DNA from: Spirosomataceae bacterium | GTDB taxonomy: Bacteria; Bacteroidota; Bacteroidia; Cytophagales; Spirosomataceae | DNA: 64,000 nucleotides | Assembly: GCA_046329125.1 (NCBI GenBank) | Contig: JAXLVD010000017.1 | Coordinates: 16,048-80,047, forward strand | Reading direction: 5' to 3' | Shown here: positions 26,992-63,295 of the stretch, one piece after another | How the letters are laid out: every line of letters starts with the position of its first letter | How positions within the stretch are numbered: position 1 is the first letter of the stretch | Program-made: the position numbers and the translations under genes | The notes under the pieces: model-generated | The model's database searches: none | What the model was told of the DNA's origin: nothing | The model's input: the letters and a program-made list of their open reading frames with translations, nothing else

Positions 26992-27029
26992 TGTCCGCTT
27001 TTGGACAATTGCTCGTACCGAAGCGGACA
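26992..27029. promoter_or_regulatory. O1: bipartite palindromic site upstream of R1 (candidate PadR operator)
   Basis: TGTCC-GCTTTT-GGACA (26992-27007) plus a degenerate CGTAC-CGAAGC-GGACA (27014-27029). The first site is 110 nt upstream of the R1 ATG. Confidence 0.6.
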
Positions 27030-27076
27030 GATGTGGTACGGGCAACCTGCCCGTTTTTATAGTATTTGATACTTAA

Positions 27077-29746
27077 TTATTCAGCTTTCAATGTCTTCAC
27101 CGGATTGACCAAAGCAGCTTTGATTGCTTGAAAACTGACCGTTGCTAACGTGATGAGCAGAGCACCAATACCCGTAGCGACAAATACCTGCCACGAGATC
27201 GAAGTACGGTAGCTATACTTGTCCAACCATTCCTGCATGGCGTACCAAGAAACGGGAGCGGCAATGAGGCAGGAGATCAACACCAACAGGACGAATTCTT
27301 TGGAGAGCATCTGCCACAAACCGGCCACGGATGCGCCTAACACTTTGCGAATACCGATCTCTTTGGTACGTTGTTCGGCCACAAACGAGGCCAGTCCAAA
27401 CAGGCCCAAACAGGAGATGAAAATCGCCAATACCGCAAATAAACTTGACAGTTTTCCAACCCGTTCTTCTGCGCTGAACTTGGCATTGTATTCGTCATCA
27501 ACAAATGTGTAATCAAACGGCGCGGCAGGGATGAGCTTCTTGAAGACCGCTTCGATTTTGGGAAGTGCCGTCGCCGCACTGACTCCCGGGTTAATTTTAA
27601 TGTTCAGCCAGTTGGGATTGCCGGCCATCAAAAAGACGGTAGGCTTCACCTGCTCAAACGGCGATTCCATGACCATGTCTTTCACAATGCCTACGATTTT
27701 GAACGGTTTTTCTACATCATTGGTCATCCATTTGCTTTTCCAATGAACAGTTTCTCCAAGGGCGACGGTCGGCGTATTTTTAGGAAAACCCATCAATCGA
27801 GCGGCGGTTTCGTTGATGATAAAACCTGCCGAGTCGGAAGCAAAAGCTTTGGAAAAATTCCGACCGGCCACAAATTCCCAACCTACCGTTTGAGCGTATT
27901 CGGGAGTGATGGAAAGCGTAGCAAAATTTTCATTTTCTAACGTTACCCCTTTTCGACTGAAACCGGTATTGGCACTCCATACGCCGGTGATCGGGCTTTG
28001 GGATTCGGCCATTTCCACCACAATGCCCGTGCTTTTCAATTCACTGCGCAATACGTCCGTTTTTCCGTAAAAATCGTTCGATTTCATTTGAACCATCAAT
28101 AATCGGTCACGCGAATAACCGATAGGGCGGTTTTTGGCGAATTGTACCTGTTGATAGATGATAATGGTACAAATAACCAAGGTGACAGAAACGGTAAATT
28201 GTAAGACTACCAATACTTTACGGGGCAAAGAGGCCATTCGCCCCCATTGCATAGCGGCTCCTTTCAATACTTTGACGGGTTGGAAAGAAGTCAAATAAAA
28301 GGCCGGGTAGCTGCCGGCCAGCAGCCCGGTCAGGAAAATAAAGCCCAAACTGAACAGCCGGAAATATAGATTGGTCAATGGCAGAGCCATTTGCTTGTCG
28401 GCCAGTTCATTGAAGCCGGGCAATGCCAACAAAACCATCACTTGGGCAATCACAAAGGCGATGATAACGACCAGAAACGATTCCCCGAAAAACTGCCCTA
28501 TCAGCTGCCCGCGCAGGGAGCCAATGGCTTTGCGAATGCCTACTTCTTTGGCCCGCTTTTCGGAACGGGCAGTGCTCAAATTCATGAAATTGATACAGGC
28601 CAACAGCAACACAAAAAAGCCGATCATCCCCACCAACCAAACGTATTGAACGGGGCCGTTATCGACCAAGCCGTTTTTGAATCGAGCGTATAAATGCCAA
28701 TCCTGCATCGGGTGAAGCCACATTTGCGGGTGGGTAGCGGCCTCTTCCTTCATGTCATCCAATCGCCTGATGGCGTTCAATTCAGAATCTTTGATCGCCG
28801 CCGTAGCCTTTTCAAAGGTCGTTTCGGGTTTGATTTCTACATACATGATCAGCGCATGATTATCCCATTTCTTTTCTTTCATGTACCGATTCGTAGCCAA
28901 AAAATATTCCCACGAAGCCACAAATTGTACTCCGGAGAAAACAGAGTTCTGCGGAAAATCCTCATAGATACCTGTTACTTTTACGTTCAGCTCAGTATTG
29001 ATTTTGAGCGGCTTATTCATGGGGTCGGTATCGCCGAACAATGCTTTGGCAACGGAAGCCGAAAGCAAAACGGATTGCGGATCGGTCAGCCCCTCCCAAC
29101 TGCCTTTTTGCATTTCAAAAGTGAACAGTTCCGGGGCTTTGGTTTCCATGAACTGCCCTTGTCCCGAAAGTTTTGTTTCGCCGGCCGTCAAAATGTATTC
29201 GTTTTTATACGTTGACGCAATGATGTGTTTAAAATTGTCGCCGTAATTGGTTTTCAGTTCGTGAATGAAAGGATAAGGCACAGACTTACTCGTTTTTATC
29301 TCTCCGTTCATTACCTGATTTTGTACTACCTGCGCGATTCGCGGGTAATTTTTATGATAGGTATTAAAGGATAATTCATCCCAAACCCACAAACCAATAA
29401 GCATCACCACGGCCATGCCGGTAGCCAATCCAAAGATATTGATGAAGGAGTAGCCTTTGTGTTTCAGTAGGTTACGAAAGGCGATTTTGAAATAGTTCTG
29501 TAACATGGTCGGGCTGTAGGAATAGGTGATTGGATAGATTGAAGGTTTTCGTTTAATATAACGGGGTTGGAAAAACCCTAATACGTCGAACCAATACCGC
29601 CACTGAGCATGGTGTAAGCCTGCTCGTCTGACTTGGTAGTCAAATTCTTCGTGCAAATCGCCTTGCACTTCCTCCAATAAATGAGGAGCGCAAAAAAAGC
29701 GCAGAAAGCGGTCTGCTAAGCGAGGCGGTTTGATGCTGGATTTCAT
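27077..29746 (-). CDS. P5: orphan double-FtsX permease, class-B prefix
   Basis: I chose the ATG at 29746 (MKSSIKPPRLADRFLRFFCAPHLLEEVQGDLHEEF). The longer ORF start at 29776 lies inside the hairpin at 29761-29790. Loops RSEKRAKEVGIRK and EQRTKEIGIRK. Confidence 0.88.
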   Translation of the reverse strand: MKSSIKPPRLADRFLRFFCAPHLLEEVQGDLHEEFDYQVRRAGLHHAQWRYWFDVLGFFQPRYIKRKPSIYPITYSYSPTMLQNYFKIAFRNLLKHKGYSFINIFGLATGMAVVMLIGLWVWDELSFNTYHKNYPRIAQVVQNQVMNGEIKTSKSVPYPFIHELKTNYGDNFKHIIASTYKNEYILTAGETKLSGQGQFMETKAPELFTFEMQKGSWEGLTDPQSVLLSASVAKALFGDTDPMNKPLKINTELNVKVTGIYEDFPQNSVFSGVQFVASWEYFLATNRYMKEKKWDNHALIMYVEIKPETTFEKATAAIKDSELNAIRRLDDMKEEAATHPQMWLHPMQDWHLYARFKNGLVDNGPVQYVWLVGMIGFFVLLLACINFMNLSTARSEKRAKEVGIRKAIGSLRGQLIGQFFGESFLVVIIAFVIAQVMVLLALPGFNELADKQMALPLTNLYFRLFSLGFIFLTGLLAGSYPAFYLTSFQPVKVLKGAAMQWGRMASLPRKVLVVLQFTVSVTLVICTIIIYQQVQFAKNRPIGYSRDRLLMVQMKSNDFYGKTDVLRSELKSTGIVVEMAESQSPITGVWSANTGFSRKGVTLENENFATLSITPEYAQTVGWEFVAGRNFSKAFASDSAGFIINETAARLMGFPKNTPTVALGETVHWKSKWMTNDVEKPFKIVGIVKDMVMESPFEQVKPTVFLMAGNPNWLNIKINPGVSAATALPKIEAVFKKLIPAAPFDYTFVDDEYNAKFSAEERVGKLSSLFAVLAIFISCLGLFGLASFVAEQRTKEIGIRKVLGASVAGLWQMLSKEFVLLVLISCLIAAPVSWYAMQEWLDKYSYRTSISWQVFVATGIGALLITLATVSFQAIKAALVNPVKTLKAE

Positions 29747-29760
29747 GATTTCTGTAATCA

Positions 29761-29790
29761 TGTAGAGCCGAAACATTTTGCGGCTCTACA
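29761..29790 (-). repeat. Intercistronic hairpin (P6/P5 junction)
   Basis: TGTAGAGCCG - AAACATTTTG - CGGCTCTACA: a perfect 10-bp stem, homologous to the element at 18415-18479. Confidence 0.55.
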
Positions 29791-29798
29791 AAGGGGGA

Positions 29799-32426
29799 TT
29801 ATTCAGATCGTAAACTCTTTACCGGATTGGTCAATGCCGCACGAATGGCCTGATAACTGACCGTTGCCAAAGTGATGAGCAAAGCGCCTGCGGCCGATAC
29901 GCCAAATACCCACCAACTGATGTCAGTACGATATTCATATTTTTGAACCCATTCATCCATAAAATAATAAGCAATTGGGGAAGAGATCAGGCAGGAGATG
30001 ATGACCAACAGGACAAAGTCTTTGGAAAGCAACCCCCACAAATTGGGAACGGTCGCTCCCAATACTTTGCGAATGCCGATCTCTTTGGTACGTTGTTCGG
30101 CCACAAACGACGCCAAGCCGAACAGACCCAAGCAGGAAATGAAAATGGCGAGAATGGCGAAGAAGGTAGCCAATTTGCCGATGCGCTCTTCATCGCTGAA
30201 TTTTCGGGCGTACTCATCATCTGAAAATTTGTACTCAAACGGAGCTGAAGGGTTGTGTTTTTTGAAAACAACCTCAAGTTTGGCTAACGCTTCGCGCGAA
30301 CTGACGGCAGGATTGATTTTGAGATTAATGACGCTCAAATCGTTATAATCCATTACAAAAGAGGTGCGGAAAACAGGGCTGTACGGCGATTGCATTACCA
30401 GATCTTTCACTACACCAATGACTTGATAGGACCTCTCATTGATCTTTACGATTTCGCCGATGGGCTTTTTGAGGCCCATAAATTTGACAGCCGTTTCGTT
30501 CAGGATGATTGCCGAAGAATCCGTCGCAAATTCTCTTGAAAAATCGCGCCCTTCTTTAAATTCCCAACCAATGGTTTTGCCAAAATCGTGCGTAACGGAT
30601 ACGGCTGCGAAATTGCCCTGAATGGAAGGGTCTTTGCCCCGCCAATCATAGCCGTTGTTGATCGCCCAAACAGAAGTGATCGGGCCGGACGACTCTGACA
30701 TTTCAGTGACGGTTCCCGTTTTCAGAATATCATTTCTCAAAACATCGTAATGGCCTGCAAGGTCAGGGGTGTTGATGGGCACCGTCAGTAGTCCGTCGCG
30801 GCTGTAACCGATAGGGCGGTTTTTAGCGTGTTGGATTTGACGGAAGACAACAATCGTTCCGATAATGAGCGTGACAGAAACCGTGAATTGAACCACCACC
30901 AACACTTTACGGGGAACAGCCGCAAAACGCCCCACTCGGAAGGTTCCTTTCAGCACTTTAATGGGTTGAAATGAAGACAGATACAACGCCGGATAGCTGC
31001 CGGCAATCAAACCCGTTACTAAAGTAAAACCGATGCCCAACAACCAAAACAACGGATTTGTCCACAAAATGGACAACTGCTTGTCGGCCACTTCGTTGAA
31101 CATTGGCAAAATCAATTGTACCAATAATAAAGACAACACAAAAGCAACGACAACCACGAGCAGCGATTCACTGAAAAACTGATTGATCAACTGCCCGCGC
31201 ACTGACCCGACCGCTTTGCGAATCCCTACTTCTTTGGCGCGCTTTTCACTTCTGGCCGTACTCAAATTCATGAAATTGATACAGGCCAACAGCAGCACAA
31301 AAACCCCGACAATGCCGAACAACCACACAAATTCAATGCGTCCTCCTGTATTTAACCCGTTTTTAAATTCCGAATACAAATGCCATCGGCTCATCGGATG
31401 CAGGAAAACTATGGGCTTGAAAGGTCTTTCTTCGGGGCGTATTTTGTTGAATTTTACGTTTTTGATTTTGGCCGAAACCTGAGCCATGTCGGCATTATCG
31501 GCCAATTGTGCGTAAGTTTGAGTAAAATTGCTGCGCCACGGATTGGTTTTTTCCCTGATCCACGGATTGCTGTCGAGGTACAATTCCCAAGGCAGAATGA
31601 ATGATAAATCCTTGAAATCGGAATTGTAGGGCAAGTCTGCATATACACCCGTTACCTTCACGTTCAGTTTGTTATCCACTTTCATGATTTTTCCTACGGG
31701 ATCGGCATCGCCGAAATATGCTTTGGCTACCGACTCGGAAAGCAGAATGGAATTCATGTCTTTCAATCCTGACCGCGTTCCCTGAAGCATTTTCAGGCTC
31801 AACATTTCGGTTATGGACGGTTCAAAGAAATTACCGGTTTTGGTCAGTTTTTTCTCTTCAAAAGTCAGCAGGTGATCTCCCGTCCACGATGACTGTACCA
31901 CGTATTTGAACGGTCCGTCGTTACGGTCGCTGCCGTACTTATCCAATAGTTCCGGACCCATCAGATACGGGTTGGCGGTTTGGGTATTGACTACCCCGTC
32001 AAACGTTTGATGTTGCATTACCTGAGCGATGCGCTCGTAATTGGGGTAGCTTTTGTTGTAAGCCAGTTCATCATACATCCACAAACCGATGAGCATCGCC
32101 ACGGCCATACCCGTAGCTAAACCGGAGATGTTGATGAAGGAGTAACCTTTGTGTTTCAATAGGTTACGAAAAGCGATTTTAAAATAGTTGCTTAGCATAT
32201 TGAGGCTGATTAAATAGGTTGTTGGATAAGGAGAAGGTTTTCTTTTGATATAACGCGGCTGAAAAAAGCCTAACACATCGCGCCAATAGCGCCATCGGGC
32301 GTGTCGCACACCGACTCGTTTGACTTGATAATCAAACTCTTCGTGCAAATCTCCCTGCACTTCTTCCAACAAGTGAGGAGCGCAGAAGAAATTGAGGAAT
32401 TTATCGGCTAAGCGAGGCGGTTTCAT
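29799..32426 (-). CDS. P6: orphan double-FtsX permease, class-B prefix
   Basis: 875 aa. MKPPRLADKFLNFFCAPHLLEEVQGDLHEEF. Loops RSEKRAKEVGIRK and EQRTKEIGIRK. C-terminus NPVKSLRSE. Confidence 0.9.
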   Translation of the reverse strand: MKPPRLADKFLNFFCAPHLLEEVQGDLHEEFDYQVKRVGVRHARWRYWRDVLGFFQPRYIKRKPSPYPTTYLISLNMLSNYFKIAFRNLLKHKGYSFINISGLATGMAVAMLIGLWMYDELAYNKSYPNYERIAQVMQHQTFDGVVNTQTANPYLMGPELLDKYGSDRNDGPFKYVVQSSWTGDHLLTFEEKKLTKTGNFFEPSITEMLSLKMLQGTRSGLKDMNSILLSESVAKAYFGDADPVGKIMKVDNKLNVKVTGVYADLPYNSDFKDLSFILPWELYLDSNPWIREKTNPWRSNFTQTYAQLADNADMAQVSAKIKNVKFNKIRPEERPFKPIVFLHPMSRWHLYSEFKNGLNTGGRIEFVWLFGIVGVFVLLLACINFMNLSTARSEKRAKEVGIRKAVGSVRGQLINQFFSESLLVVVVAFVLSLLLVQLILPMFNEVADKQLSILWTNPLFWLLGIGFTLVTGLIAGSYPALYLSSFQPIKVLKGTFRVGRFAAVPRKVLVVVQFTVSVTLIIGTIVVFRQIQHAKNRPIGYSRDGLLTVPINTPDLAGHYDVLRNDILKTGTVTEMSESSGPITSVWAINNGYDWRGKDPSIQGNFAAVSVTHDFGKTIGWEFKEGRDFSREFATDSSAIILNETAVKFMGLKKPIGEIVKINERSYQVIGVVKDLVMQSPYSPVFRTSFVMDYNDLSVINLKINPAVSSREALAKLEVVFKKHNPSAPFEYKFSDDEYARKFSDEERIGKLATFFAILAIFISCLGLFGLASFVAEQRTKEIGIRKVLGATVPNLWGLLSKDFVLLVIISCLISSPIAYYFMDEWVQKYEYRTDISWWVFGVSAAGALLITLATVSYQAIRAALTNPVKSLRSE

Positions 32427-32433
32427 GGCTTTG

Positions 32434-32497
32434 GGAGATGAAAGTGTAAAGAGAAAGTGGAAGGATTACTTTACCCTTTTACCCTTGCACGTTACAC
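32434..32497 (-). repeat. Intercistronic GTGAAAG/GTGTAAAG hairpin-family element (P7/P6 junction)
   Basis: GATGAAAGTGTAAAGAGAAAGTGGAAGG ... CTTTACCCTTTTACCCTTGCACGTTACAC. The 5' flank CATGGCTTTGGGAG is shared with the P12 and P13 junctions. Confidence 0.45.
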
Positions 32498-32503
32498 ATT
32501 TTC

Positions 32504-35119: not shown

Positions 35120-35130
35120 AGGTTTTCATG

Positions 35131-35230
35131 GCAACTGCATAAGCACATAGGCCACATAGGGCTGAACTTGGTTCAGCAGTCCGCTTGAGCATAGCTCAAA
35201 ACTATGTGTTCTATCTGTCTATGTGGTTGC
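35131..35230 (-). repeat. Multi-stem structured intercistronic element (P8/P7 junction)
   Basis: GCAAC..GTTGC (35131/35226). CACATAG x2 (35144, 35153) facing CTATGTG x2 (35202, 35219). Internal palindromes CTGAAC-TT-GGTTCAG (35162-35176) and TTGAGC-ATA-GCTCAA (35185-35199). Confidence 0.5.
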
Positions 35231-35232
35231 AT

Positions 35233-37860: not shown

Positions 37861-37864
37861 CTTT

Positions 37865-38197
37865 TTATACAGATAGTTTCAGGGGATTTGCCAAACGACT
37901 CCAAAAACCGGCGCGCACTTCCTGAATTTCCTGCAAGGTTCGCTGACCATAGGCCGTGACCGAAAAAAGGCGTTTGCGCCGTCCGCCGCGCTCGTTGGTA
38001 GGCTCGCCCATTTCCGACCTTACCATGCCTTTTTCTTCCAACCGTTGCAATGCCGAATGTACCTGATTCAGTCGAACACTTCTATCCGTTTGTTCAATGA
38101 TTTCGTGCATCAACAATACACCATAGGCTTGGCCGTTTAATACGGCTACCGCGAGTAAAACGATTTCTTCAAATTCTCCCAGGTAAGTTCGTTTCAT
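37865..38197 (-). CDS. R2: PadR-family winged-HTH transcriptional regulator
   Basis: 110 aa. EFEEIVLLAVAVL..QAYG ... VHSALQRLEEKG ... ERGGRRKRLFSVTAYG. Confidence 0.9.
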   Translation of the reverse strand: MKRTYLGEFEEIVLLAVAVLNGQAYGVLLMHEIIEQTDRSVRLNQVHSALQRLEEKGMVRSEMGEPTNERGGRRKRLFSVTAYGQRTLQEIQEVRAGFWSRLANPLKLSV

Positions 38198-38306
38198 TGG
38201 ATTCTATTATTTCTATTTTTGCTGAGCAAATAGTTTGCCATTGAAAAGTTGTATTGATAAATAGTTGATTGACAGTGGTTTAGTCGAGTGAGCGGTTTTT
38301 GTTGAT

Positions 38307-38342
38307 TGTCCATAATCGGACAACTTTGTACGCTTTAGGACA
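38307..38342. promoter_or_regulatory. O2: bipartite palindromic site in the R2 / TIM-barrel divergent region
   Basis: TGTCC-ATAATC-GGACA (38307-38322) plus TGTAC-GCTTTA-GGACA (38327-38342). It lies 110 nt from the R2 ATG and ~125-145 nt from the ATG at 38466. Confidence 0.6.
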
Positions 38343-38465
38343 ACACAACGGGCTTTTTTCTTTGCGACTATTGTGAATCCTTTGCGCCCTTTGCGTGCAA
38401 AGACATTTATCCAAGGGTAAAGCTGCATGCATCCTTCCTTTTGTCAAAAAATAAATCATTGACTT

Positions 38466-39314
38466 ATGAAACATATCACCAACTGCCTGCTTTGCGGGCT
38501 GTTACTTTCCCTCACCACACTTTCAGTACAGGCCCAAAAAATGCCCGAAGATAAAGCCGGTTGGAAATTGGGCGCTCAGTCGTATTCGTTCCGTTTATTT
38601 ACATTTGCCGATGCCCTGCGCAAAATTGACAGTTGCGGCCTGAAATACGTCGAGGCTTTTCCCGGACAAACCATCGGCGGCGGCATTGAAGGAAAAATGG
38701 ATTTTACGATGGATGCGGCTAAACGCCAACAAGTGAAAAAAATGATCAAAGACAAAGGCATTACCATGGTAGCCTACGGGGTAGTGGGTGCCAAAAATGA
38801 AGAAGAATGGAAAGCCTTGTTTGAATTTGCCAAAGATATGGGCGTTTTGAATATCAATTCGGAACCTACTCCTGCCCAAATGCCGTTGGTGCGTCAATTG
38901 GCCGAGCAGTACAAAATCAATGTAGCCCTGCACAATCACCCCAAACCTTCGCGCTATTGGCATCCGGATACGGTGATTGCTGCTATCGCAGGCAGCAAAT
39001 ACGTCGGGGCTTGTGCCGACATCGGCCATTGGGTGCGCTCCGGTCTTGACCCGGTAGAATGTCTCAAAAAATTGGACGGTCACGTCATCGGAATGCATTT
39101 CAAAGACGTAAAAAAAGATACCCCCGACGGCCGTCATCATGATGTAGTGTGGGGAACGGGCGATTGTAAAGTAGAAGCCGTTCTTTCGGAATTAAAGCGG
39201 CAGAAATTTAAAGGGCCTATCTCGGCAGAATACGAATATCATTGGGAAAACAACGGCCCGGAAATTGCCGAAAGCGCGAAAAATTTCCGCGAGATTTATA
39301 GTCGCACAAAGTAA
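38466..39314 (+). CDS. Secreted sugar-phosphate isomerase/epimerase-like TIM-barrel protein (xylose isomerase-like fold)
   Basis: 282 aa with signal peptide MKHITNCLLCGLLLSLTTLSVQA. Pattern ..GLKYVEAF.., ..INVALHNHP.., ..CADIGHW.., ..GMHFKD.., ..ISAEYEY is typical of the AP-endonuclease-2/xylose-isomerase-like superfamily. It is the only plus-strand gene inside the array. Confidence 0.8.
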   Translation: MKHITNCLLCGLLLSLTTLSVQAQKMPEDKAGWKLGAQSYSFRLFTFADALRKIDSCGLKYVEAFPGQTIGGGIEGKMDFTMDAAKRQQVKKMIKDKGITMVAYGVVGAKNEEEWKALFEFAKDMGVLNINSEPTPAQMPLVRQLAEQYKINVALHNHPKPSRYWHPDTVIAAIAGSKYVGACADIGHWVRSGLDPVECLKKLDGHVIGMHFKDVKKDTPDGRHHDVVWGTGDCKVEAVLSELKRQKFKGPISAEYEYHWENNGPEIAESAKNFREIYSRTK

Positions 39315-39321
39315 AGTCTAA

Positions 39322-39359
39322 AGTCGTCGCTCGCGTCCTCGCGAGCGACGACTATTTTT
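39322..39359 (+). terminator. Intrinsic terminator of the TIM-barrel gene
   Basis: Perfect 14-bp stem AGTCGTCGCTCGCG - TCCT - CGCGAGCGACGACT, followed by ATTTTT. Confidence 0.85.
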
Positions 39360-39436
39360 GAGGCTTCCAGCCTTTCATATATTTAGGCCGGAGGCCTTAT
39401 AATAGTTGTCATTCGGTAGAACCGAGCGACTGCGGC

Positions 39437-41836: not shown

Positions 41837-41921
41837 TTCAGTAACCGGATCAAATGAAGGGGGCAAGATACTGAAGAACCCAAAGCGCATGCCGTTAAAA
41901 AATGTTAAGTAAGCACTATCA

Positions 41922-44582: not shown

Positions 44583-44590
44583 CGGCTCTT

Positions 44591-47230: not shown

Positions 47231-47233
47231 GAG

Positions 47234-47563
47234 TCAAGAAAGTGAAGGGTTAGGAATTGCATCCCACAGTTCATTTCGAATTTGTCTCATCTCGGCCAAG
47301 GTGCGTTTACCCAATGCCGTAATTCGAAAAAAGCGCTTTCGGCGCCCGCCGCGTTCGGAAGTGGCTCCTCCCAATTCGGATACGACAAAGCCTTTTTCTT
47401 CCAAACGATACAACGCAATATGTACTCCGCTCAGGCTGATAAGCCGGTTGTTGGTACGTTGCTTCAGTTCCGCCGCAATCGTCACGCCGTAGGCCGTGCC
47501 TTCCAACACGGCAACGGAGAGTAAAACCAGTTCTTCAAATTCGCCTAAATAGGACCGACCCAT
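47234..47563 (-). CDS. R3: PadR-family winged-HTH transcriptional regulator
   Basis: 109 aa. EFEELVLLSVAVL..TAYG ... VHIALYRLEEKG ... ERGGRRKRFFRITALG. Confidence 0.9.
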   Translation of the reverse strand: MGRSYLGEFEELVLLSVAVLEGTAYGVTIAAELKQRTNNRLISLSGVHIALYRLEEKGFVVSELGGATSERGGRRKRFFRITALGKRTLAEMRQIRNELWDAIPNPSLS

Positions 47564-47661
47564 GTTCAGATGCTGTGATTTTCTATTTAATTATTATTTG
47601 CTAAACAAATAGTATGCCATCGCTAAAATGGGCTGCAAATAAGGGAAGAAGACACTTCAGA

Positions 47662-47698
47662 TGTCCGAAATCGTACAACTGCCGTCCGTTGACGAACA
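47662..47698. promoter_or_regulatory. O3: bipartite palindromic site upstream of R3
   Basis: TGTCC-GAAATC-GTACA (47662-47677, one mismatch) plus CGTCC-GTTGAC-GAACA (47683-47698). It is 99 nt upstream of the R3 ATG and downstream of the module-4 terminator. Confidence 0.5.
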
Positions 47699-47722
47699 AC
47701 GACCAAGATCGGACAAGTAGGT

Positions 47723-47762: not shown

Positions 47763-47804
47763 CATTTTACTTCAGCCTTTTACCTTTTTACTTCTACCGC
47801 TCAA

Positions 47805-50402: not shown

Positions 50403-50411
50403 GGCTTTGGG

Positions 50412-50473
50412 AGGTGAAAGTGCAAAGTGTAGAGGTGAAATTGGAAAGATTACAATACTTTACACTTTCACCT
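50412..50473 (-). repeat. Intercistronic hairpin (P13/P12 junction), GTGAAAGTGTAAAG family
   Basis: 17-nt arms AGGTGAAAGTGCAAAGT (50412-50428) / ACTTTACACTTTCACCT (50457-50473). The single mismatch is a G.U pair only in the minus-strand (sense) RNA. Confidence 0.6.
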
Positions 50474-50485
50474 TTACACGCTTTC

Positions 50486-53146: not shown

Positions 53147-53155
53147 GGCTTTGGG

Positions 53156-53196
53156 AGGTGAAAGTGCAAAGATTATAATACTTTACACTTTCACCT
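53156..53196 (-). repeat. Intercistronic hairpin (P14/P13 junction), same family
   Basis: AGGTGAAAGTGCAAAG (53156-53171) - ATTATAATA - CTTTACACTTTCACCT (53181-53196). All 16 positions pair in the sense RNA, including one G.U. The hairpin ends 9 nt before the P13 ATG. Confidence 0.6.
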
Positions 53197-53208
53197 TTAC
53201 ACGCTTTC

Positions 53209-55911: not shown

Positions 55912-55922
55912 AGAAAAATAGT

Positions 55923-56258
55923 TTAGCTCCATTTTAAAGTCACTTGCGGTACAATACGGTCCCAGAGATTATTCCGTACCTGTCGTACTTCATTCAATAC
56001 CCGACCGCCTAAGGCCGTCACCGTAAACATCCGTTTGCGGCGACCGCCCCGTTCGGCCGTAGCTTCACCTAAAAGAGAGGTGACGTAGCCTTTTTGTTCG
56101 AGCCGTTGCAAAGCGGCATGAACAGCACCGGTACTGACGGTCTGTTTGGTTTCCTGTTCCAGTTCTTCGGCTATGGATACGGAATATGCCTTGGGAGCAA
56201 GTACTGCTACCGTTAAAAGGACTACTTCTTCAAATTCACCTAAATCACTCCGTCGCAT
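55923..56258 (-). CDS. R4: PadR-family winged-HTH transcriptional regulator
   Basis: 111 aa. EFEEVVLLTVAVL..KAYS ... VHAALQRLEQKG ... ERGGRRKRMFTVTALG. Confidence 0.9.
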   Translation of the reverse strand: MRRSDLGEFEEVVLLTVAVLAPKAYSVSIAEELEQETKQTVSTGAVHAALQRLEQKGYVTSLLGEATAERGGRRKRMFTVTALGGRVLNEVRQVRNNLWDRIVPQVTLKWS

Positions 56259-56330
56259 GGATAAAGGGTTGGTTAAGCGCTGATTTTATTATATCTATTT
56301 CTGTATATAAAATACTTTGCCGGAAAATTG

Positions 56331-56361
56331 AATCGGCGATTTGAAGTAGAAATCGCCGATT
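56331..56361 (-). terminator. Terminator-like hairpin between O4 and the R4 start
   Basis: Perfect 12-bp stem AATCGGCGATTT - GAAGTAG - AAATCGCCGATT. On the minus strand it is followed by CAATTTTCC. Confidence 0.5.
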
Positions 56362-56385
56362 TTGGGAAAATCTGAAAAATAGAAT

Positions 56386-56422
56386 TGTCCAAAAACGGAC
56401 AGGTTTCGTACGATGGTGGACG
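56386..56422. promoter_or_regulatory. O4: bipartite palindromic site upstream of R4
   Basis: TGTCC-AAAAAC-GGACA (56386-56401) plus CGTAC-GATGGT-GGACG (56407-56422). It is 128 nt upstream of the R4 ATG. Confidence 0.6.
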
Positions 56423-56441
56423 AAGGCGAAAAAAGGTTGAA

Positions 56442-56714
56442 GGGTAGAGTGTAAATGAATTGGTTTACAAAGTTGTACCTATCGTTTTAACCCCTATCTC
56501 CGTCCCTTGCGGTCCGCCGCCGCGGCCCCTTTCAGGAGAAAGGGAGCTGCAAGAAGTCCCTCCACTGAAAGGGGAGGGATTTAGGGTGGGGTTGTGTATA
56601 ACCTAACAAACCAATTCATGTAAAGGTTAAGGGGAGATTGTAAAGACAGTGGAACGAATATCGGTTAATCTTTTTTACACTCTCATTACAACCTTGCCTC
56701 TTTTCACTCTACCC
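56442..56714. repeat. 273-bp nested-palindrome element (MITE-like or structured RNA)
   Basis: Four concentric inverted repeats: GGGTAGAGTG (56442-56451) / CACTCTACCC (56705-56714); ATGAATTGGTTT (56455-56466) / AAACCAATTCAT (56608-56619); AACCCC (56489-56494) / GGGGTT (56588-56593); CCCCTTTCAG (56526-56535) / CTGAAAGGGG (56565-56574). Confidence 0.55.
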
Positions 56715-59092
56715 TACTCCGTTTTCAGGGACTCTACCGGATTGCTTAAGGCGGCTTTGATGGCTTGAAAACTGACCGAAAACAACGCAATACCTAAAGC
56801 AAAGGCAGACGCCAAGCCCAAATACCACCATTTGACCTCGACACGGTACGCAAATGTTTGCAGGAGCTTTTGGCCCAGCCAATAAGAGATGGGGAGACCA
56901 ATGAGCAGGGCAATTCCGACCAGCTTTAAAAAATCTCCCGAAAGCATGGCCGCAATGCTGCTGACGCTCGCGCCCAATACTTTACGAATGCCGATCTCTT
57001 TGGTGCGTTGTTTGGCGACGAGCGAGATCAGCCCAAAAATACCCGCACACGCGATCAAAATAGCAAGGATGGTCACAAAGCCGGTCATGCGCCAGATGTT
57101 GTCAATGGCTTGATACGACTTGGCCACTTCGTCGCTGAGATAAAAATGTCCCAAGGCTCTGCGTGACGGGATTTTTTTAAAACGTTTTTCCATGCTGCTT
57201 ATCAGCGCTTTCCCTTTTGATTCATCCGTCAAACGAACGGTTAAAAAGTTGCTGAGTTGTTGTTTGCCGGCGTACCAGTGTAAAAGCGGTTCCACTTCGT
57301 CTTTAAGGCTTTGATAATGGAAGTTTTTGGTCACACCGATGACCGTATAAATTGTGTTGTCGTTGTTTTGGCGTAAGCGTTTGCCCACACCGGCAGTCCA
57401 GCCGAAGGACTTCATGGCGGCTTCATTGATGATCACGGAATGATTGACCGAATCGGGGGAGTTGTCGGAGAAGCCTCGGCCTTCAAGAAAGGGGATTTTG
57501 TACGTTTCAAAATAATTTTCAGTGGCACTTACGTGGCGCAGAATTATCTTTTTTGCTTCGTTGCCTTCCGGAAAATAGTTATTAAAGTTTTGCCAATACC
57601 GTATGGGTGTAATTTCAGAAACGGCAAAAGATACCACATTCGGATTTTGTCGAAGTTCGTTCAGAATGACTTGGCCTTCCGAAACCGCCGCATTTTCGTT
57701 ACGGTAAGCTAAGTCGGTATTGAAAATCAGCACATTGTTTTTATCATACCCAACATCGGCAGTTTTCATAAAATGGATCTGCTGCCGTAAGCCGATTGTG
57801 CCGACAATTAAAATAACTGCCAACGCAAATTGTAACACGATCAGGCTGTTTTGGCGCATACGTCCCCGGCGCGGATCGGTTGAAATTTTCCCTTTTACGG
57901 CATCAGTAGTTTTCAGTCGCATCAGATAATATGCAGGGTAGGTGCCGGCTATCAGTGCAACGAACAATGAAATACCGAACACGATGAGTATAGTGGGGTA
58001 ATCGTTGGCAAATGAAATATCCAACTGCATGTGCCCGTCGCGCAGTTGATTAAACGAAGGAATCAGATAATAGACTGCAAAAAATACCGACAGCAACGAT
58101 GAAACCGCCATAACAATGCCTGACTCTGTCCAAAATTGATTCAAAATGATGCGTTTTGTGGCCCCAACTACCTGTTTTACGGCTACTTCCCTGATACGCG
58201 GTAAGGCCGAAGCCATGTTGAGATTGACCAAATTGATACTGATGATCAGCAACAAAAAAACAGCAATGGCAATAGCCCCGTAAATAAGACCGATAAATGT
58301 CGGGTTTTGGTCGTGAATGAAGTTTTTAAACAAACTCAGGTGTATGACCTGCTTTTGGGATTCGGGTGAAAAATGGGTTTTGACCAATTGGGGCAGTTTT
58401 GCTTCCAGTGCCTCTTTGTTGGCACCCTTTTTCAGTAACACGAAAACCGACGCGAAAGTATTGTACCAGTCAGCCCCTTCCTGAAATTTGGGGTTAGCCG
58501 TAAGGAAGGCGGCAGGCATCAGTACCTCAAATTGTTGCGACGAATTGGCGGGAATTTTGGCTAATACTCCTGAGATTTTGAATGGGAGTGTGTCGTCTAA
58601 GGTGACTGTTTTGCCGACGGGATCCATATCGCCGAACAGATTATACGCTATTTTTTCGCTGATTACTAACGAATTGCGCCCTTTAAGAGCCGTGGCAGCA
58701 TTGCCGTATTTGAGCGGAAAACTAAACACCTCAAAAAAGGTGGAATCTGCAAAAACAGTGCTTTCCTGAACATCTTTTGTCCCATAATGAATCCAAGGCC
58801 AATACCATGTCTGAATATGCGTACCGGTTTCAATTTCAGGATAATCTTTCCGCAGTTGGTCTAAAATCGGATAAACCGTGTGGCTGTGTTTACGACCGTT
58901 GGATTCCGTCTGAACGTAGTAAAGTCGATCTCCGTTTTGATGAAATTCGTCAAAGGTGAGGCATTTTTGAGCAAAAAGCACTAAGACGACCACGCAGGCC
59001 ATCCCTACCGACATGCCCAACAGATTGATACCCGTAAAGAGGCGATTTTTCCAAAGATTTCGGAGTGCGATTTTGAAATAATTGACGAGCAT
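56714..59092 (-). CDS. P15: stand-alone orphan double-FtsX permease without prefix domain
   Basis: I chose the ATG at 59092 (MLVNYFKIALRNL...). The ORF-track start at 59128 is a GTG. Loops ALPRIREVAVKQ (divergent) and KQRTKEIGIRK. Confidence 0.85.
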   Translation of the reverse strand: MLVNYFKIALRNLWKNRLFTGINLLGMSVGMACVVVLVLFAQKCLTFDEFHQNGDRLYYVQTESNGRKHSHTVYPILDQLRKDYPEIETGTHIQTWYWPWIHYGTKDVQESTVFADSTFFEVFSFPLKYGNAATALKGRNSLVISEKIAYNLFGDMDPVGKTVTLDDTLPFKISGVLAKIPANSSQQFEVLMPAAFLTANPKFQEGADWYNTFASVFVLLKKGANKEALEAKLPQLVKTHFSPESQKQVIHLSLFKNFIHDQNPTFIGLIYGAIAIAVFLLLIISINLVNLNMASALPRIREVAVKQVVGATKRIILNQFWTESGIVMAVSSLLSVFFAVYYLIPSFNQLRDGHMQLDISFANDYPTILIVFGISLFVALIAGTYPAYYLMRLKTTDAVKGKISTDPRRGRMRQNSLIVLQFALAVILIVGTIGLRQQIHFMKTADVGYDKNNVLIFNTDLAYRNENAAVSEGQVILNELRQNPNVVSFAVSEITPIRYWQNFNNYFPEGNEAKKIILRHVSATENYFETYKIPFLEGRGFSDNSPDSVNHSVIINEAAMKSFGWTAGVGKRLRQNNDNTIYTVIGVTKNFHYQSLKDEVEPLLHWYAGKQQLSNFLTVRLTDESKGKALISSMEKRFKKIPSRRALGHFYLSDEVAKSYQAIDNIWRMTGFVTILAILIACAGIFGLISLVAKQRTKEIGIRKVLGASVSSIAAMLSGDFLKLVGIALLIGLPISYWLGQKLLQTFAYRVEVKWWYLGLASAFALGIALFSVSFQAIKAALSNPVESLKTE

Positions 59093-59191
59093 GAGAGTGA
59101 TTAGTAAGGTTTGGATTTTTAACCGCACACTTTATGCCACCCTACAACGGGTTTGATTTCTAAGAGGTTACGGATTGGTAGGCGGAGAGGG

Positions 59192-59229
59192 TGTCCATTT
59201 TCGGACAGTTACTGTTCGGAGGTGAACAC
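59192..59229. promoter_or_regulatory. O5: bipartite palindromic site upstream of P15 (no adjacent PadR)
   Basis: TGTCC-ATTTTC-GGACA (59192-59207) plus TGTTC-GGAGGT-GAACA (59214-59229). It is 100 nt upstream of the ATG at 59092. Confidence 0.6.
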
Positions 59230-59247
59230 GGCACAAAACTACGGTAC

Positions 59248-60024
59248 TCATGGCCGGTAACTGAATTCGGATTGGTTCATCAATTTTCCGTCAACGAATG
59301 TTTTTAGGGTCAGCGGAAAATCCCATTGGGCATCGTAGGTGTATTCATAACTCCAAACATTGACCTTGTTACCGGCTGCATCTTTACCAAAATTGGCAGT
59401 GGCGTTGTTAGGGCTTCCCCAACTTGGGTTCGTAAACGGAAGCGGTAATTGTTGAAACGGATTGTAATGCGTATCATATTCCCAATACGAAGTTGCCCAC
59501 TGTGTTACGTTTCCGCGAGTATCATAGTCGTAGGTATTGGCCAACACTTCGCGACGGTCAGGGGCAAACGTCTGACTTTTGGTTCTGTTGCCCGCTGTTG
59601 AATAAGTATGCAAGGTATAAGACAGGATTTGTTTGCCGTCGGCGGCATAATGTAATTCTTTTACGGGAAGGGAAGGTTGGGGGCCGTATTCATAACCGGT
59701 CAATGCCTGTAGGGTAAGCGGCTTACCGGGCACAGGCCATGAACTCAGATACAGCGGATGGGAAGACCAAAACTCTTCTCGTATCACTTGCGCTCCGACA
59801 TAAGTATAACGCCTTGATTCCCAAATGTTTTTGCCGTCGTCAAAGTATTTTCTGATTTCAATCGGCTTATTTTCAGCATTATAAATAAATTCTGTTTGCC
59901 GCTTGCCGTTTACCTTGATTTCACTGATCACAGGCGGTTTACCAAGCCTGTCTTGCAAAACAGACTTGTCTTTACATCCCACCAAACAAACACAAAGCGC
60001 CGGGAGGCTATAAATGATTTTCAT
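59248..60024 (-). CDS. Small lipoprotein with YD/Rhs-repeat-like motifs
   Basis: I trimmed the start to the ATG at 60024 (MKIIYSLPALCVCLVGCKD: signal peptide plus LVGC lipobox), because the longer ORF would overlap the 3' end of P16. Repeated motifs YxYD..GN (NTYDYDTRGNVTQW, YEYTYDAQWD, LHYAADGKQILSY). Confidence 0.7.
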   Translation of the reverse strand: MKIIYSLPALCVCLVGCKDKSVLQDRLGKPPVISEIKVNGKRQTEFIYNAENKPIEIRKYFDDGKNIWESRRYTYVGAQVIREEFWSSHPLYLSSWPVPGKPLTLQALTGYEYGPQPSLPVKELHYAADGKQILSYTLHTYSTAGNRTKSQTFAPDRREVLANTYDYDTRGNVTQWATSYWEYDTHYNPFQQLPLPFTNPSWGSPNNATANFGKDAAGNKVNVWSYEYTYDAQWDFPLTLKTFVDGKLMNQSEFSYRP

Positions 60025-60090
60025 AAGACCGTATCCTTTCTCAACAGACGCCTTAGAGCGGTAAAAAGTTGGAAAAGAAGATAAAGGAAA

Positions 60091-60138
60091 CCGGAAAAAC
60101 GGAACACAGAGAATGACCTCCGTGTTCCGTTTTTCCGG
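60091..60138 (-). terminator. Intrinsic terminator-like hairpin after P16
   Basis: Perfect 17-bp stem CCGGAAAAACGGAACAC (60091-60107) / GTGTTCCGTTTTTCCGG (60122-60138). On the minus strand it is followed by TTTCCTTTATCTTCTTTTCC. It is homologous to the terminator at 15711-15754. Confidence 0.65.
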
Positions 60139-60155
60139 TTTCCGCTCCTCCGATA

Positions 60156-62810
60156 TTACTCCGATTTCAACGACTTTACGGGATTGCCGAGCGCTGCTTT
60201 GACAGATTGAAAACTGACCGTTAAAAAGGCAATCAGGATGGACAAAACGGCTGCTATTACAAACGTCCACGCGCTGATGTCGATGCGGTAAGGGTAATTT
60301 TGCAACCATTCTTTGATGGCATAATAAGCGGCCGGAAAGGCAAAAATAAAGGAGAAACTGACCAATTTCAGAAAATCAGTTGAAAGCAGGGTGGTGATAC
60401 TCGCTACCGAAGCGCCCAGTACTTTGCGAATGCCGATCTCTTTCGTGCGTCGTTCGGCCGAAAGCGTAGCCAATCCAAACAGGCCGATGCAGGAGATAAA
60501 GATGGTCAAAATGGCACCAAACAGCATGATCTGCTTCCATTTAGCTTCCGACTCATACTGTTTCCGGTTTACTTCATCCATAAACTTGTATTCGTAAGGA
60601 GTGATCGGAAATAGTTTTTTATAGGTTTTTTCAATATGCCCTAAACTTGCCGTGGCGGTGCCGGGTTTGATTTTAATGAAAGCCCTACCGTAACCGTTAC
60701 CGGGTTTCATAGTAAACAATTGCGGATTGATCTCTAAGTTTAATGACTCAAAATGATAGTTTTTTACCACACCGATAACCGTGTATTTCTCGCCGTCGTT
60801 GTACCAGAAATCAACGACTTGCCCCAATGGATTTTTCCATCCCGCTTTTTTGACAAACGCTTCGTTGACCAGTACCGATTTGGTAGAATCCGTTGGAAAG
60901 TCAGCCGAAAAATTGCGCCCTTTAATGATAGGGATTTGTAACAGCGGGAAATAGGTCGCATCTACAGTTTCGTAGGCGAATGATTGTTGGGTATCACCGT
61001 TTACTTTGGCTACGGTGCCCCACATGCCGCCGTTTTTTGGGGCTACATCTACAATATGCGGGCTTTTCAATAATTCTTCTTTTAACAGCTTGGCCTCATT
61101 ACGACTCATCTGCGACTTATTGATGGTGATTACGTTTTTGTCACTGTACCCTAAGTCTTTATGAGTGAGATAATTGAACTGAGAATAGATGGTCAGCGTA
61201 GCAATGATCAAAAAAGAGGCCAACGAAAATTGGAGAACCACCAAACTTTTTTGGAGGTAGTTTTTACCCGAAAGATTAAAGCGACTGTACAGGGTCTGCA
61301 CCGGATTATAATTGGAGAGAACTAAAGCAGGATAAAAGCCTGCCAATAGACCGGTAATAAGGAATAAGCCGACGTAGCCAATCACCAACTTAACATCAAA
61401 CAGATAAGAGAAAGACAAGGCTTTGTTGGAAAGCTCATTGAAAGTAGGCAAAACCAATTGCAGCAAAGCCAGCGCAAAAGCGAATGCGGCAAAACACAAA
61501 ATAAAGGACTCTCCCAAAAATTGAAAGATCAATTGCCCTCGGCCGCCGCCGACCACTTTACGTACGCCGATTTCTTTGGCCCGTTTCAGCGAGCGCGCTA
61601 CGGTTAAGTTTACAAAATTGATGCAGGCAATCAGGAGGATAAATAGCGCGATACCCGATAAAATGTAAGAAAACATGGGATTACTGCCGTCTTGCAATCC
61701 GTTTTGAGCCGGATATTCTTTGCTTAGGTGCATCTCCGTAAAAGGCTGTAATGCATAGACGACTTTGTTTTTCTCTCCGTATTTTTCAGCTACCATCTTG
61801 ATGGTTTCCTTCGCATCTTTTTGGTAGATGCGGTTCATGGTCGCTTCTACTTTTTTCAGGTCGGCGTTGGGTTGCAGCACCACAAACGTATTCTGGAAGA
61901 TGTTGAACCAGTTTTCGTTACGCCCCATTTCCTGCGCGCTGACCACATTGGGAAAAAGCACCTCAAACTTAATGGATGAATTTTGAGGACATTTCTTGGC
62001 AATACCTGTTACTTTATAAGGTTCAAATTGCGTAGATTCTCCGTAGGAGTCTTTAAAATAGATCGTTTTGCCCAATGCATTGGCAGTACCGAATTGCTTT
62101 TCGGCCAGTTCTTCCGAAATCACCACCGATTTGGGCTCTTTCAGGGCTGTTTTCGGGTCGCCTTGGAGCAATGGAAAGGAGAATACGGAGAAGAAGCTGC
62201 TGTCGGCGACAAATGATTCTTGGCTGATGATCTCCGTTCCTCGTTTCATATCGTTGTGATGTCCTTTATAGCGAACAAAGGCCTGTATTTCAGGAACTCC
62301 TGCGCTGAACTTAGGTCCCTGAAAATGTCCTGTATTGCCTTGTTTCTGCTCAACAATGCCCGCAGGGGTAATGGAAGTGCTCGTTATCCGATAAATGTTG
62401 GGGTTATTGGCGTGAAATTGATCATAACTGACCTCATCTTTGGTATAAAGCATGATCAGCATGGCAGCGGCCAAGCCGATGCTCAGCCCAATGACATTGA
62501 TGGCTGAATACACCTTATTATGGGCTAAGGTGCGGAGGGTGATGGTTAGATAATTACGAAACATAACTGTAAATAGGATAGAAGTTTGATGATATTCCTG
62601 TTTTCGTTGACGACGTTTTACAAAAGGGGGTAATACCGATAGGACATTGAGCAGATAACGCCAAGTTGCCTGTCGTTTACCGGCTCGTTCATACCAATAA
62701 GTGTACAACTCCTCTAAGTCACCTTCTACTTCTTCGAGAGTTTCTTCAGGATGCAGCCAAACCAACAAGCGGCGGACCCAGCGAGGCGGAGGCAGATTCG
62801 GCAGGTTCAT
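60156..62810 (-). CDS. P16: orphan double-FtsX permease, class-A-like prefix, body subfamily II
   Basis: I chose the ATG at 62810 (MNLPNLPPPRWVRRLLVWLHPEETLEEVEGDLEELY), which overlaps the R5 stop as ATGA (62807-62810). Loops RSLKRAKEIGVRK and ERRTKEIGIRK. Confidence 0.88.
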   Translation of the reverse strand: MNLPNLPPPRWVRRLLVWLHPEETLEEVEGDLEELYTYWYERAGKRQATWRYLLNVLSVLPPFVKRRQRKQEYHQTSILFTVMFRNYLTITLRTLAHNKVYSAINVIGLSIGLAAAMLIMLYTKDEVSYDQFHANNPNIYRITSTSITPAGIVEQKQGNTGHFQGPKFSAGVPEIQAFVRYKGHHNDMKRGTEIISQESFVADSSFFSVFSFPLLQGDPKTALKEPKSVVISEELAEKQFGTANALGKTIYFKDSYGESTQFEPYKVTGIAKKCPQNSSIKFEVLFPNVVSAQEMGRNENWFNIFQNTFVVLQPNADLKKVEATMNRIYQKDAKETIKMVAEKYGEKNKVVYALQPFTEMHLSKEYPAQNGLQDGSNPMFSYILSGIALFILLIACINFVNLTVARSLKRAKEIGVRKVVGGGRGQLIFQFLGESFILCFAAFAFALALLQLVLPTFNELSNKALSFSYLFDVKLVIGYVGLFLITGLLAGFYPALVLSNYNPVQTLYSRFNLSGKNYLQKSLVVLQFSLASFLIIATLTIYSQFNYLTHKDLGYSDKNVITINKSQMSRNEAKLLKEELLKSPHIVDVAPKNGGMWGTVAKVNGDTQQSFAYETVDATYFPLLQIPIIKGRNFSADFPTDSTKSVLVNEAFVKKAGWKNPLGQVVDFWYNDGEKYTVIGVVKNYHFESLNLEINPQLFTMKPGNGYGRAFIKIKPGTATASLGHIEKTYKKLFPITPYEYKFMDEVNRKQYESEAKWKQIMLFGAILTIFISCIGLFGLATLSAERRTKEIGIRKVLGASVASITTLLSTDFLKLVSFSFIFAFPAAYYAIKEWLQNYPYRIDISAWTFVIAAVLSILIAFLTVSFQSVKAALGNPVKSLKSE

Positions 62811-63145
62811 ATTCCGCTGAGTTGAAGTTTGGTCGGAGGCATCAACTGCCAAAGTTCCTGACGCAACTGTTGAATTTCCTGCAGTGCCCGATTGCCCAAG
62901 GCCGTCACCTCAAACATACGCTTCCGACGGCCACCGCGCTCGTTGGTAGCCCCTCCGAGTTTTGAGTTCACAAACCCTTTTTCTTCCAGACGGATCAGGG
63001 TATTATGTACCGTACCGAAGGTGACGATCCGACCCGTATGTTCTTCCAGTGCCTGACTCACCGTAACGCCGTAGGCCTCGCCGTCGAGTATAGCTACCAT
63101 GAGTAAAACAACTTCTTCAAATTCACCTAAGTAGGTTCGACGCAT
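62807..63145 (-). CDS. R5: PadR-family winged-HTH transcriptional regulator
   Basis: 112 aa. EFEEVVLLMVAIL..EAYG ... VHNTLIRLEEKG ... ERGGRRKRMFEVTALG. Confidence 0.9.
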   Translation of the reverse strand: MRRTYLGEFEEVVLLMVAILDGEAYGVTVSQALEEHTGRIVTFGTVHNTLIRLEEKGFVNSKLGGATNERGGRRKRMFEVTALGNRALQEIQQLRQELWQLMPPTKLQLSGI

Positions 63146-63200
63146 TGGGTTTGAGTATTATTAGTTTCTATTTTATCGTACAAATAGTTTGCCGGTCAAT

Positions 63201-63236
63201 AAAAACGGCCTCCAAATGAACTTGGAGGCCGTTTTT
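63201..63236. terminator. Strong bidirectional intrinsic terminator between O6 and the R5 start
   Basis: AAAAACGGCCTCCAA - ATGAAC - TTGGAGGCCGTTTTT: a perfect 15-bp stem that includes the A/T runs. Confidence 0.75.
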
Positions 63237-63258
63237 GCTAATGATCAATGCGTTTCGG

Positions 63259-63295
63259 TGTCCGCAAACGGACAAACGCTGTTCGGCGATGGACA
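63259..63295. promoter_or_regulatory. O6: bipartite palindromic site upstream of R5
   Basis: TGTCC-GCAAAC-GGACA (63259-63274) plus TGTTC-GGCGAT-GGACA (63280-63295). It is 114 nt upstream of the R5 ATG. Confidence 0.6.

Follow-up and report, generated by a model that had tools for sequence, protein, structure and literature searches.

Tandem TGTCC-N6-GGACA palindromes upstream of padR-permease operons in a Spirosomataceae contig: probable enhancers of an NtrC-family sigma-54 regulator

Which protein reads the palindrome TGTCC-N6-GGACA, which lies upstream of five padR genes and of one stand-alone permease gene in a Spirosomataceae bacterium? The window that we analysed is a 64,000-nucleotide stretch of contig JAXLVD010000017.1 (assembly GCA_046329125.1, positions 16,048 to 80,047). 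The relevant genes are all on the minus strand, where the regulated units, spanning 15777-63145, comprise the padR genes R1 (26544-26882), R2 (37865-38197), R3 (47234-47563), R4 (55923-56258) and R5 (62807-63145), their permeases, and the stand-alone permease P15 (56714-59092). The initial annotation took the palindromes for an operator shared by the PadR proteins. Our comparison of sequences points to another reader: the palindrome pairs are probably tandem upstream activating sequences (UASs), that is, enhancers, of an NtrC-family sigma-54 response regulator encoded outside the window. We read them so because of their phasing to a -24/-12 promoter element, their conservation, and the linkage of the same motif to bacterial enhancer-binding protein (bEBP) genes and canonical sigma-54 promoters elsewhere.

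An exact search returned the perfect palindromes where they had been annotated, at 26992-27007, 38307-38322, 56386-56401, 59192-59207 and 63259-63274, and these five compare with none in all 100 dinucleotide-preserving shuffles. When up to one mismatch was allowed, eight matches were found against 1.4 expected, and all eight lie inside the six named intergenic regions; the one-mismatch sites are 47662-47677, 38327-38342 and 63280-63295. With up to two mismatches the window held 19 matches, which is about the chance level (20.8), so the degenerate second copies are credible only by their distal position, 20-22 bp away, and not by sequence alone. The sequences and the pairing of these distal copies had been described correctly, except that the P15 copy lies at 59213-59228 and not at 59214-59229. 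The distances from site to ATG, 110, 110, 99, 128 and 114 nt for R1-R5 and 100 nt for P15, were also correct, and the 20-22 bp spacing of the two phased copies fits the cooperative dimer binding proposed for them.

The six putative enhancers, all on the minus strand, span 26992-27029 at R1 (perfect proximal copy, degenerate distal copy at 27014-27029), 38307-38342 at R2 (perfect proximal copy, one-mismatch distal copy) and 47662-47715 at R3 (one-mismatch copy, distal copy at 47683-47698 and a possible third copy at 47700-47715). The R4 enhancer covers 56386-56422, with a perfect proximal copy and a weak distal copy at 56407-56422 (CGTAC-N6-GGACG, three mismatches); that of P15 covers 59192-59228, with a perfect proximal copy and the distal TGTTC-N6-GAACA; and that of R5 covers 63259-63295, with a perfect proximal and a one-mismatch distal copy.

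Between the palindromes and the ATG, all six regions carry an element (T/C)GGCA-N6-T(T/G)(G/T)N with the -24/-12 spacing of sigma-54 promoters. The GG is invariant and the spacing exact in all six; GC at -12 is found only in R2 and P15. The elements, on the minus strand, are TGGCACGGCATTTTAT at R1 (26913-26928, canonical -24 and weak -12), TGGCAAACTATTTGCT at R2 (38225-38240, GG-N10-GC), TGGCATACTATTTGTT at R3 (47604-47619), CGGCAAAGTATTTTAT at R4 (56307-56322, weak -12), TGGCATAAAGTGTGCG at P15 (59124-59139, GG-N10-GC) and CGGCAAACTATTTGTA at R5 (63179-63194). The R1 element agrees in position and type with the orthologous promoters L001-L003, and that of R5 is identical in L042, L047 and L103. 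On a crude sigma-54 weight score, TGGCAAACTATTTGCT is the top match of the window, with 11.75 of 12.75. The GG lies 72 (R1), 75 (R2), 51 (R3), 72 (R4), 61 (P15) and 73 bp (R5) away from the midpoint of the proximal palindrome. These distances step by one helical turn of about 10.5 bp; those to the ATG are irregular.

Two other promoter readings were tried and rejected. A Bacteroidota sigma-A promoter (-33 TTTG, -7 TAnnTTTG) finds its TTTG, but the conserved downstream TAAT lacks a following TTTG, and a -24/-12 layout is the only one that agrees with the fixed GGCA located 6 bp upstream. At R5 alone there is an E. coli-type sigma-70 match, TTGACC-18-TAAAAT (10 of 12), which overlaps the -24/-12 element at 63170-63199; the orthologous promoters do not have it.

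The same design is conserved in related genomes. With a profile of R1-R5 we retrieved 80 padR loci from Runella, Spirosoma, Dyadobacter, Larkinella, Fibrella, Chitinophaga, Haliscomenobacter and other Cytophagales and Chitinophagales; the Runella limosa homologue is 90% identical to R1, which makes a relative of Runella the probable source of the window. Together with the window, these loci gave 86 padR or permease promoters, and 84 of them keep the palindrome pair and TTGGCA-N4-ATTTG(T/A). The two palindromes are 20-22 bp apart, mostly 21, and the sequence between them and the -24/-12 element is not conserved. Across 84 genome loci the centre-to-GG distances cluster at 51, 61-63, 71-75, 83 and 93 bp. 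For a period of 10.5 bp the Rayleigh R is 0.89, and although these loci lack independence, the pattern extends over several orthologue groups. The P15 design recurs at L009-L011: there, a stand-alone permease gene that diverges from padR is preceded by a separate palindrome pair, at 62 bp from GGCATGGAAGTTGA.

A search for the motif irrespective of padR linked it to another class of regulator. We searched metagenome contigs for pairs of perfect palindromes separated by 4-6 bp, whatever genes lay nearby, and obtained 120 loci. Recognisable homologues of efflux or regulator genes were present in 69: an HlyD-type adaptor in 35, an ABC ATPase in 34, an NtrC-type regulator (bEBP) in 27, an FtsX/ADOP-like permease in 25 (ADOP, acidobacterial duplicated orphan permease) and a TolC-type protein in 13. 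The bEBP gene is usually divergent from HlyD/ABC ATPase/FtsX-permease or TolC operons, and in 17 of the 27 loci the palindromes lie inside the divergent region between bEBP and efflux genes. The enrichment at padR genes that a PadR site would predict did not appear, as just three of the 120 tandem-motif loci have padR. Of 226 flanks, 88 carry a strong TGGCACG-N4-TTGC-type element, which shuffled flanks do in 7% of cases; the distances peak at 51-52, 60-64, 71-73, 82-84 and 94-97 bp. The 84 genome loci and the 88 metagenome flanks thus place the palindromes on one face of the helix relative to the promoter, at about 51, 62, 72, 83 and 94 bp, as is expected of activator sites. High-GC loci have the textbook TGGCACG-N4-(T/C)TGCT, whereas low-GC, Bacteroidota-type loci without padR have TGGCACG-N4-TTGT(A/T); since TTGT(A/T) is usual in the latter, it accounts for the non-canonical -12 of the window.

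The palindrome-linked bEBP has the domains Response_reg, Sigma54_activat, AAA lid and HTH_8, a Fis-type helix-turn-helix (HTH), and a histidine kinase gene follows its gene. No named NCBIfam equivalog was found for it; the best hits, PEP-CTERM PrsR, AtoC and ZraR, are all below cutoff. On named Bacteroidota plasmids, bEBP-efflux loci have the same gene layout, with repeats that are related and not identical. Sigma-54-dependent regulators are carried by Spirosoma and Hymenobacter, which implies an rpoN gene in the lineage; in this genome, the regulator and rpoN are presumed to be present.

Some scan loci have features of their own. Some of the 51 loci without a recognisable homologue lie on short contigs or consist of unrelated arrays in which the 16-mer is simply repeated in tandem, and these arrays inflate that class. 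Such arrays were seen in L085, L107, L111, L117, L134 and L137, with 3-10 TGTCC-N6-GGACA units at a 21-22 bp period on AT-rich or GC-rich contigs without efflux genes; they may have nothing to do with the enhancer and be iteron-like or satellite repeats. A high-GC group (L084 2900-3040, L102 3190-3540, L150 5500-5600) has a different geometry, in which the tandem palindromes abut the start codon of the HlyD adaptor, about 90 bp downstream of a canonical TGGCACG-N4-TTGC promoter. A single degenerate palindrome is found about 39 bp upstream of that promoter, and on both sides of the region are long inverted repeats of the GCTACGTCTGTAGCG type. A DUF2807 / 'head GIN domain' protein stands directly 3' of the palindrome pair and sigma-54 promoter in L083 (1517-2137), and another ends the bEBP-linked cluster of a Spirosoma rhododendri plasmid (L202, 998-1726), which consists of ATPase, permease, TonB receptor and S41 peptidase genes. 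These two occurrences suggest that the regulon extends beyond transporters.

Several observations weigh against enhancers of this kind. The -12 departs from GC in four of the window promoters, with TTGT in R3 and R5 and TTTA in R1 and R4, and the crude sigma-54 score puts the six sites no higher than the window background (about 290 hits at an equal level); the promoter call is therefore drawn from comparative evidence. No bEBP, histidine kinase or rpoN gene was found within the 64-kb window, in which a 440-aa open reading frame (ORF) at 4337-5659 gave no Pfam match. The 80 related padR genes have none of these three kinds of gene within 1.5 kb either, and no GAFTGA-type protein (bEBP) is encoded in the 1.5 kb upstream of them. 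Roughly one in three metagenome hits gives no information, being a short contig or a simple tandem-repeat array. The HTH helix of the bEBP is conserved, which means little because many bEBPs have a helix like it. The Spirosoma rhododendri plasmid locus has a related bEBP and efflux genes without the motif, and loci of Parabacteroides, Hymenobacter and Fulvitalea use related but different palindromes. Finally, winged helix-turn-helix (wHTH) proteins of the MarR/PadR type read TGT-N8/N10-ACA, so that PadR binding is chemically possible (PMC7145548).

If the enhancer reading holds, we infer that the bEBP binds the palindromes and acts in the classical way. A partner histidine kinase would phosphorylate the regulator, as in other members of its family, and regulator dimers would assemble on the two sites 21 bp (two helical turns) apart. 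They would then loop across the helically phased spacer of 51-75 bp and, at the cost of ATP, drive the opening of the sigma-54 holoenzyme complex on (T/C)GGCA-N6-TTG(T/C/A). This -24/-12 promoter would drive every padR-permease operon as well as P15, and the shared design of enhancer and promoter would put the six units of the window under one activating signal. Of the proposed shared operator, the part that stands is a shared cis-regulatory site that links six units to one regulator; the assignment to PadR, and with it the term operator, is most likely wrong.

Where, then, might the PadR paralogues act? Over the -12 and the predicted start site, 83 unique padR-led promoters share a conserved block of 26 bp that spans GG+8 to GG+33, or roughly -17 to +9. 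The consensus reads ATTTG(T)nCGnCAnnAT....(C)TAAT, and the outer arms of the block form an imperfect dyad centred near -4. Nothing is conserved past the TTG in 35 non-padR sigma-54 promoters of similar base composition, and the block is also missing at P15 and at the L009-L011 stand-alone permeases. The window has five different blocks, all on the minus strand and each a candidate operator of its own PadR: ATTTTATCGACATTATCGTATCAAAT for R1 (26894-26919), ATTTGCTCAGCAAAAATAGAAATAAT for R2 (38206-38231, which includes TTTGC-TCA-GCAAA), ATTTGTTTAGCAAATAATAATTAAAT for R3 (47585-47610), ATTTTATATACAGAAATAGATATAAT for R4 (56288-56313) and ATTTGTACGATAAAATAGAAACTAAT for R5 (63160-63185).

The inner sequence of the block falls into discrete types, which match the signature of the PadR helix alpha3 without exception. 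The type-A block of R1, ATTTG(A/T)TCG(A/G)CATTATCG, co-segregates with GFS(T/S)VHTTLQRLE, and ATTTGTACGATAAAAT..AACTAAT goes with TFGTVHNTLIRLE, the signature with which the type-B block of R5 co-segregates in about 25 genomes. Likewise, ATTTGTTTTGCA..ATTA.AACTAAT is paired with (T/S)(M/L)SAVHATLYRLE, and ATTTGTTCTACAAAAGTTGAT with S(I/L)SAVHAALHRLE. The initial annotation had described the recognition helix as nearly identical in R1-R5; this is a weak description, as the alpha3 positions that flank the invariant His differ between the paralogues. A dyad and covariation test on the block gave GG+20.5 as the best centre, with no excess over column composition, and the operator assignment is consequently based on the presence or absence of the block and on its co-segregation with alpha3, which is confounded by orthology. 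On these sequence patterns we consider it an even matter whether the PadR paralogues bypass the palindromes and each repress their own operon through their own 26-bp block, which would cover the -12 and the start site.

That the palindromes are instead the PadR operator, bound cooperatively by two PadR dimers with cross-regulation of the modules by R1-R5, appears very unlikely to us. The palindromes do precede all five padR genes, and their geometry could be read by a PadR dimer, which speaks for compatibility only: B. subtilis PadR reads TGT-N8-ACA and hsRosR reads TGT-N10-ACA, through a His and a Tyr in helix alpha3 (PMC7145548), and all of R1-R5 have residues like these, His47 and Tyr25. 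However, tandem-motif loci have padR in 3 of 120 cases and a bEBP in 27 of 120, and P15 and the stand-alone permeases at L009-L011 have sites without padR. Rather than overlapping the promoter, the sites are 51-75 bp upstream of the -24, a poor place for a repressor, and hairpins separate them from it at R4 (56331-56361, -15.5 kcal/mol, z = -5.4) and at R5 (63201-63236, strong and terminator-like, -25.2 kcal/mol, z = -7.2), both on the minus strand. These hairpins had been noted before, and the folding energies bear them out; they are awkward for an operator and harmless for an enhancer. Moreover, one operator for five diverged paralogues would make a padR gene per module redundant, and the paralogue-specific promoter block fits better.

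It is also unlikely, if somewhat less so, that in padR-containing genomes the bEBP enhancers are bound in addition by PadR as a competing anti-activator. The TGT...ACA half-sites would suit both protein families, and no covariation signal proves the promoter-proximal block to be a dyad operator. Such double use requires more assumptions, though; the consensus and the spacer composition of the palindromes are alike in loci with and without padR, and the padR-specific block already supplies a PadR site. Least probable is that the palindromes belong to another dimeric factor or form RNA hairpins or terminators of the upstream genes. The 5-N6-5 layout resembles the boxes of CRP/FNR-type binders, yet the motif is tightly linked to bEBP genes, as it is to no CRP/FNR gene, and it is phased to -24/-12 promoters. 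A consensus scan marked two sites as terminator-like, but the stems have just 5-6 bp, the sequence and not the pairing is conserved across phyla, and some sites lie between divergent genes, where no gene upstream needs a terminator, so that the terminator reading was rejected.

Taking the enhancer reading together with the PadR blocks, we tentatively sketch a two-tier circuit, which is possible and by no means assured. A global 'on' signal from a sigma-54 two-component system, whose unnamed regulator and TGTCC-N6-GGACA enhancer would be common from Bacteroidota to high-GC soil bacteria, would be gated by local repressors, the PadR of each module acting on its private operator. The 'permease prefix domain' of the module's first permease may release PadR. 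The promoter would then behave as an AND gate with two inputs, one a general signal from the envelope, the other a substrate signal specific to the module.

R1-R5 are ORFs of 109-112 aa of the PadR family with the PadR wHTH domain; PF03551 was recorded for R5, hits to TIGR03433 and Rv3488 have E = 1e-7 to 1e-10, under the equivalog cutoffs, and a profile matches PadR/LmrR structures. Each padR heads one to four ADOP-like duplicated FtsX/MacB_PCD permeases of about 870 aa, all under the TIGR03434 (ADOP) cutoff, and the family has at least 19 paralogous orphan permeases. The first permease of every padR-led run carries 'permease prefix domain 2'; the domain search confirmed that P15 has neither a padR gene nor a prefix domain.

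Other features of the window were recorded separately. At 15777-18387, two neighbouring minus-strand ORFs (573 aa and 275 aa) jointly align to one duplicated permease, covering residues 13-550 and 605-871 of the reference paralogue; they are probably a frameshifted or otherwise split paralogue that ends the R1 unit. The R5 unit ends with a 353-aa ORF (59248-60309) without a Pfam or NCBIfam match. As annotated, the first 150 nt or so of this ORF lie inside the preceding permease gene. A hairpin with a perfect 20-bp stem (60091-60138) sits just past the stop codon of that permease, so translation of the ORF probably begins beyond the hairpin. The gap between the P15 stop (56714) and the R4 enhancer is unusually long and contains an element of about 170 bp with a G+C-rich core, whose edges are 27-nt inverted repeats (56452-56478 and 56596-56622); an outer inverted repeat (56431-56455 and 56701-56725) surrounds it. 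From its sequence, the 56431-56725 element looks like a small insertion of the miniature inverted-repeat transposable element type, and the window has no second copy. A 1110-aa type I restriction enzyme R subunit and, after it, a YgjP-like metallopeptidase are encoded at 198-4234, at the start of the window, and are unrelated to the palindromes.

The enhancer reading replaces an appealing and probably wrong PadR-operator assignment with a testable one, and indicates where the PadR paralogues probably act. It defines an enhancer motif and a likely regulator family for efflux operons of the MacB/FtsX/ADOP type, which are numerous in soil and gut Bacteroidota and in other phyla and whose functions are poorly understood. 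The locus would also be a natural system for the gating of a sigma-54 promoter by a repressor, and for the joint and individual control of large arrays of paralogous permeases. Our literature searches on PadR with sigma-54 and FtsX, on ADOP and on the motif found no prior description; the mechanism is classical, and the motif, the regulon and the PadR overlay appear to be undescribed.

In comparison with known systems, the window resembles ADOP arrays in its long tandem arrays of duplicated FtsX/MacB_PCD permeases of about 800-900 aa and in the lack of adjacent ATPases, and differs in that its permeases fall under the TIGR03434 cutoff. A similar 42-kb permease cluster is known from Psychroflexus torquis (PMC3914696), and the literature searched on ADOP gave no description of how such arrays are regulated. 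Compared with the operators of B. subtilis PadR and LmrR (ATGT-N8-ACAT), the likeness lies in the small LmrR-like, PadR-type wHTH proteins R1-R5, in palindromes whose size and TGT/ACA triplets would suit such a dimer (PMC7145548), and in the ATTT-N8-AAAT-like outer dyad of several types of the promoter-proximal block. Characterised PadR operators, however, overlap the regulated promoter, whereas the palindromes here are far upstream and mostly at loci without padR.

The closest likeness in layout is to the enhancers of NtrC, NifA and GlrR. Sites of bEBPs with TGT...ACA half-sites are known, namely TGT-N10-ACA for NifA and TGTCN10GACA for GlrR (PMC3045617), and TGTCC-N6-GGACA equals the NifA site in its outer triplets and spacing. 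As in those systems, tandem inverted repeats lie tens of bp upstream of a -24/-12 element (GG-N10-GC at R2 and P15) with face-of-helix phasing, and the activator at related loci has a receiver, an AAA+ domain and a Fis-type HTH, with a histidine kinase as partner. Unlike them, the TGTCC half-site with N6 was not reported in the literature searched, the palindrome-linked regulator corresponds to no named NCBIfam equivalog, the -12 of the Bacteroidota-type promoters here is TTGT or TTGA, and the targets here are MacB/FtsX/ADOP-type permeases, HlyD adaptors and TolC. An in-silico study (PLoS One 2025; PMC12316311) reports that sigma-54 promoters are enriched upstream of FtsX-like COG0577 permeases, that is, permeases of antimicrobial-peptide transporters, in Bacteroidia, Opitutia and gamma-Proteobacteria, which it terms a new link. 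Our results add sequence-level support for that prediction of sigma-54 control over FtsX-type transporters. The passages of the study covered by a term search contain no enhancer motif, cognate bEBP or PadR layer (PadR has no occurrence), and the UAS, its phasing and its link to a specific regulator family are defined here beyond what those passages provide.

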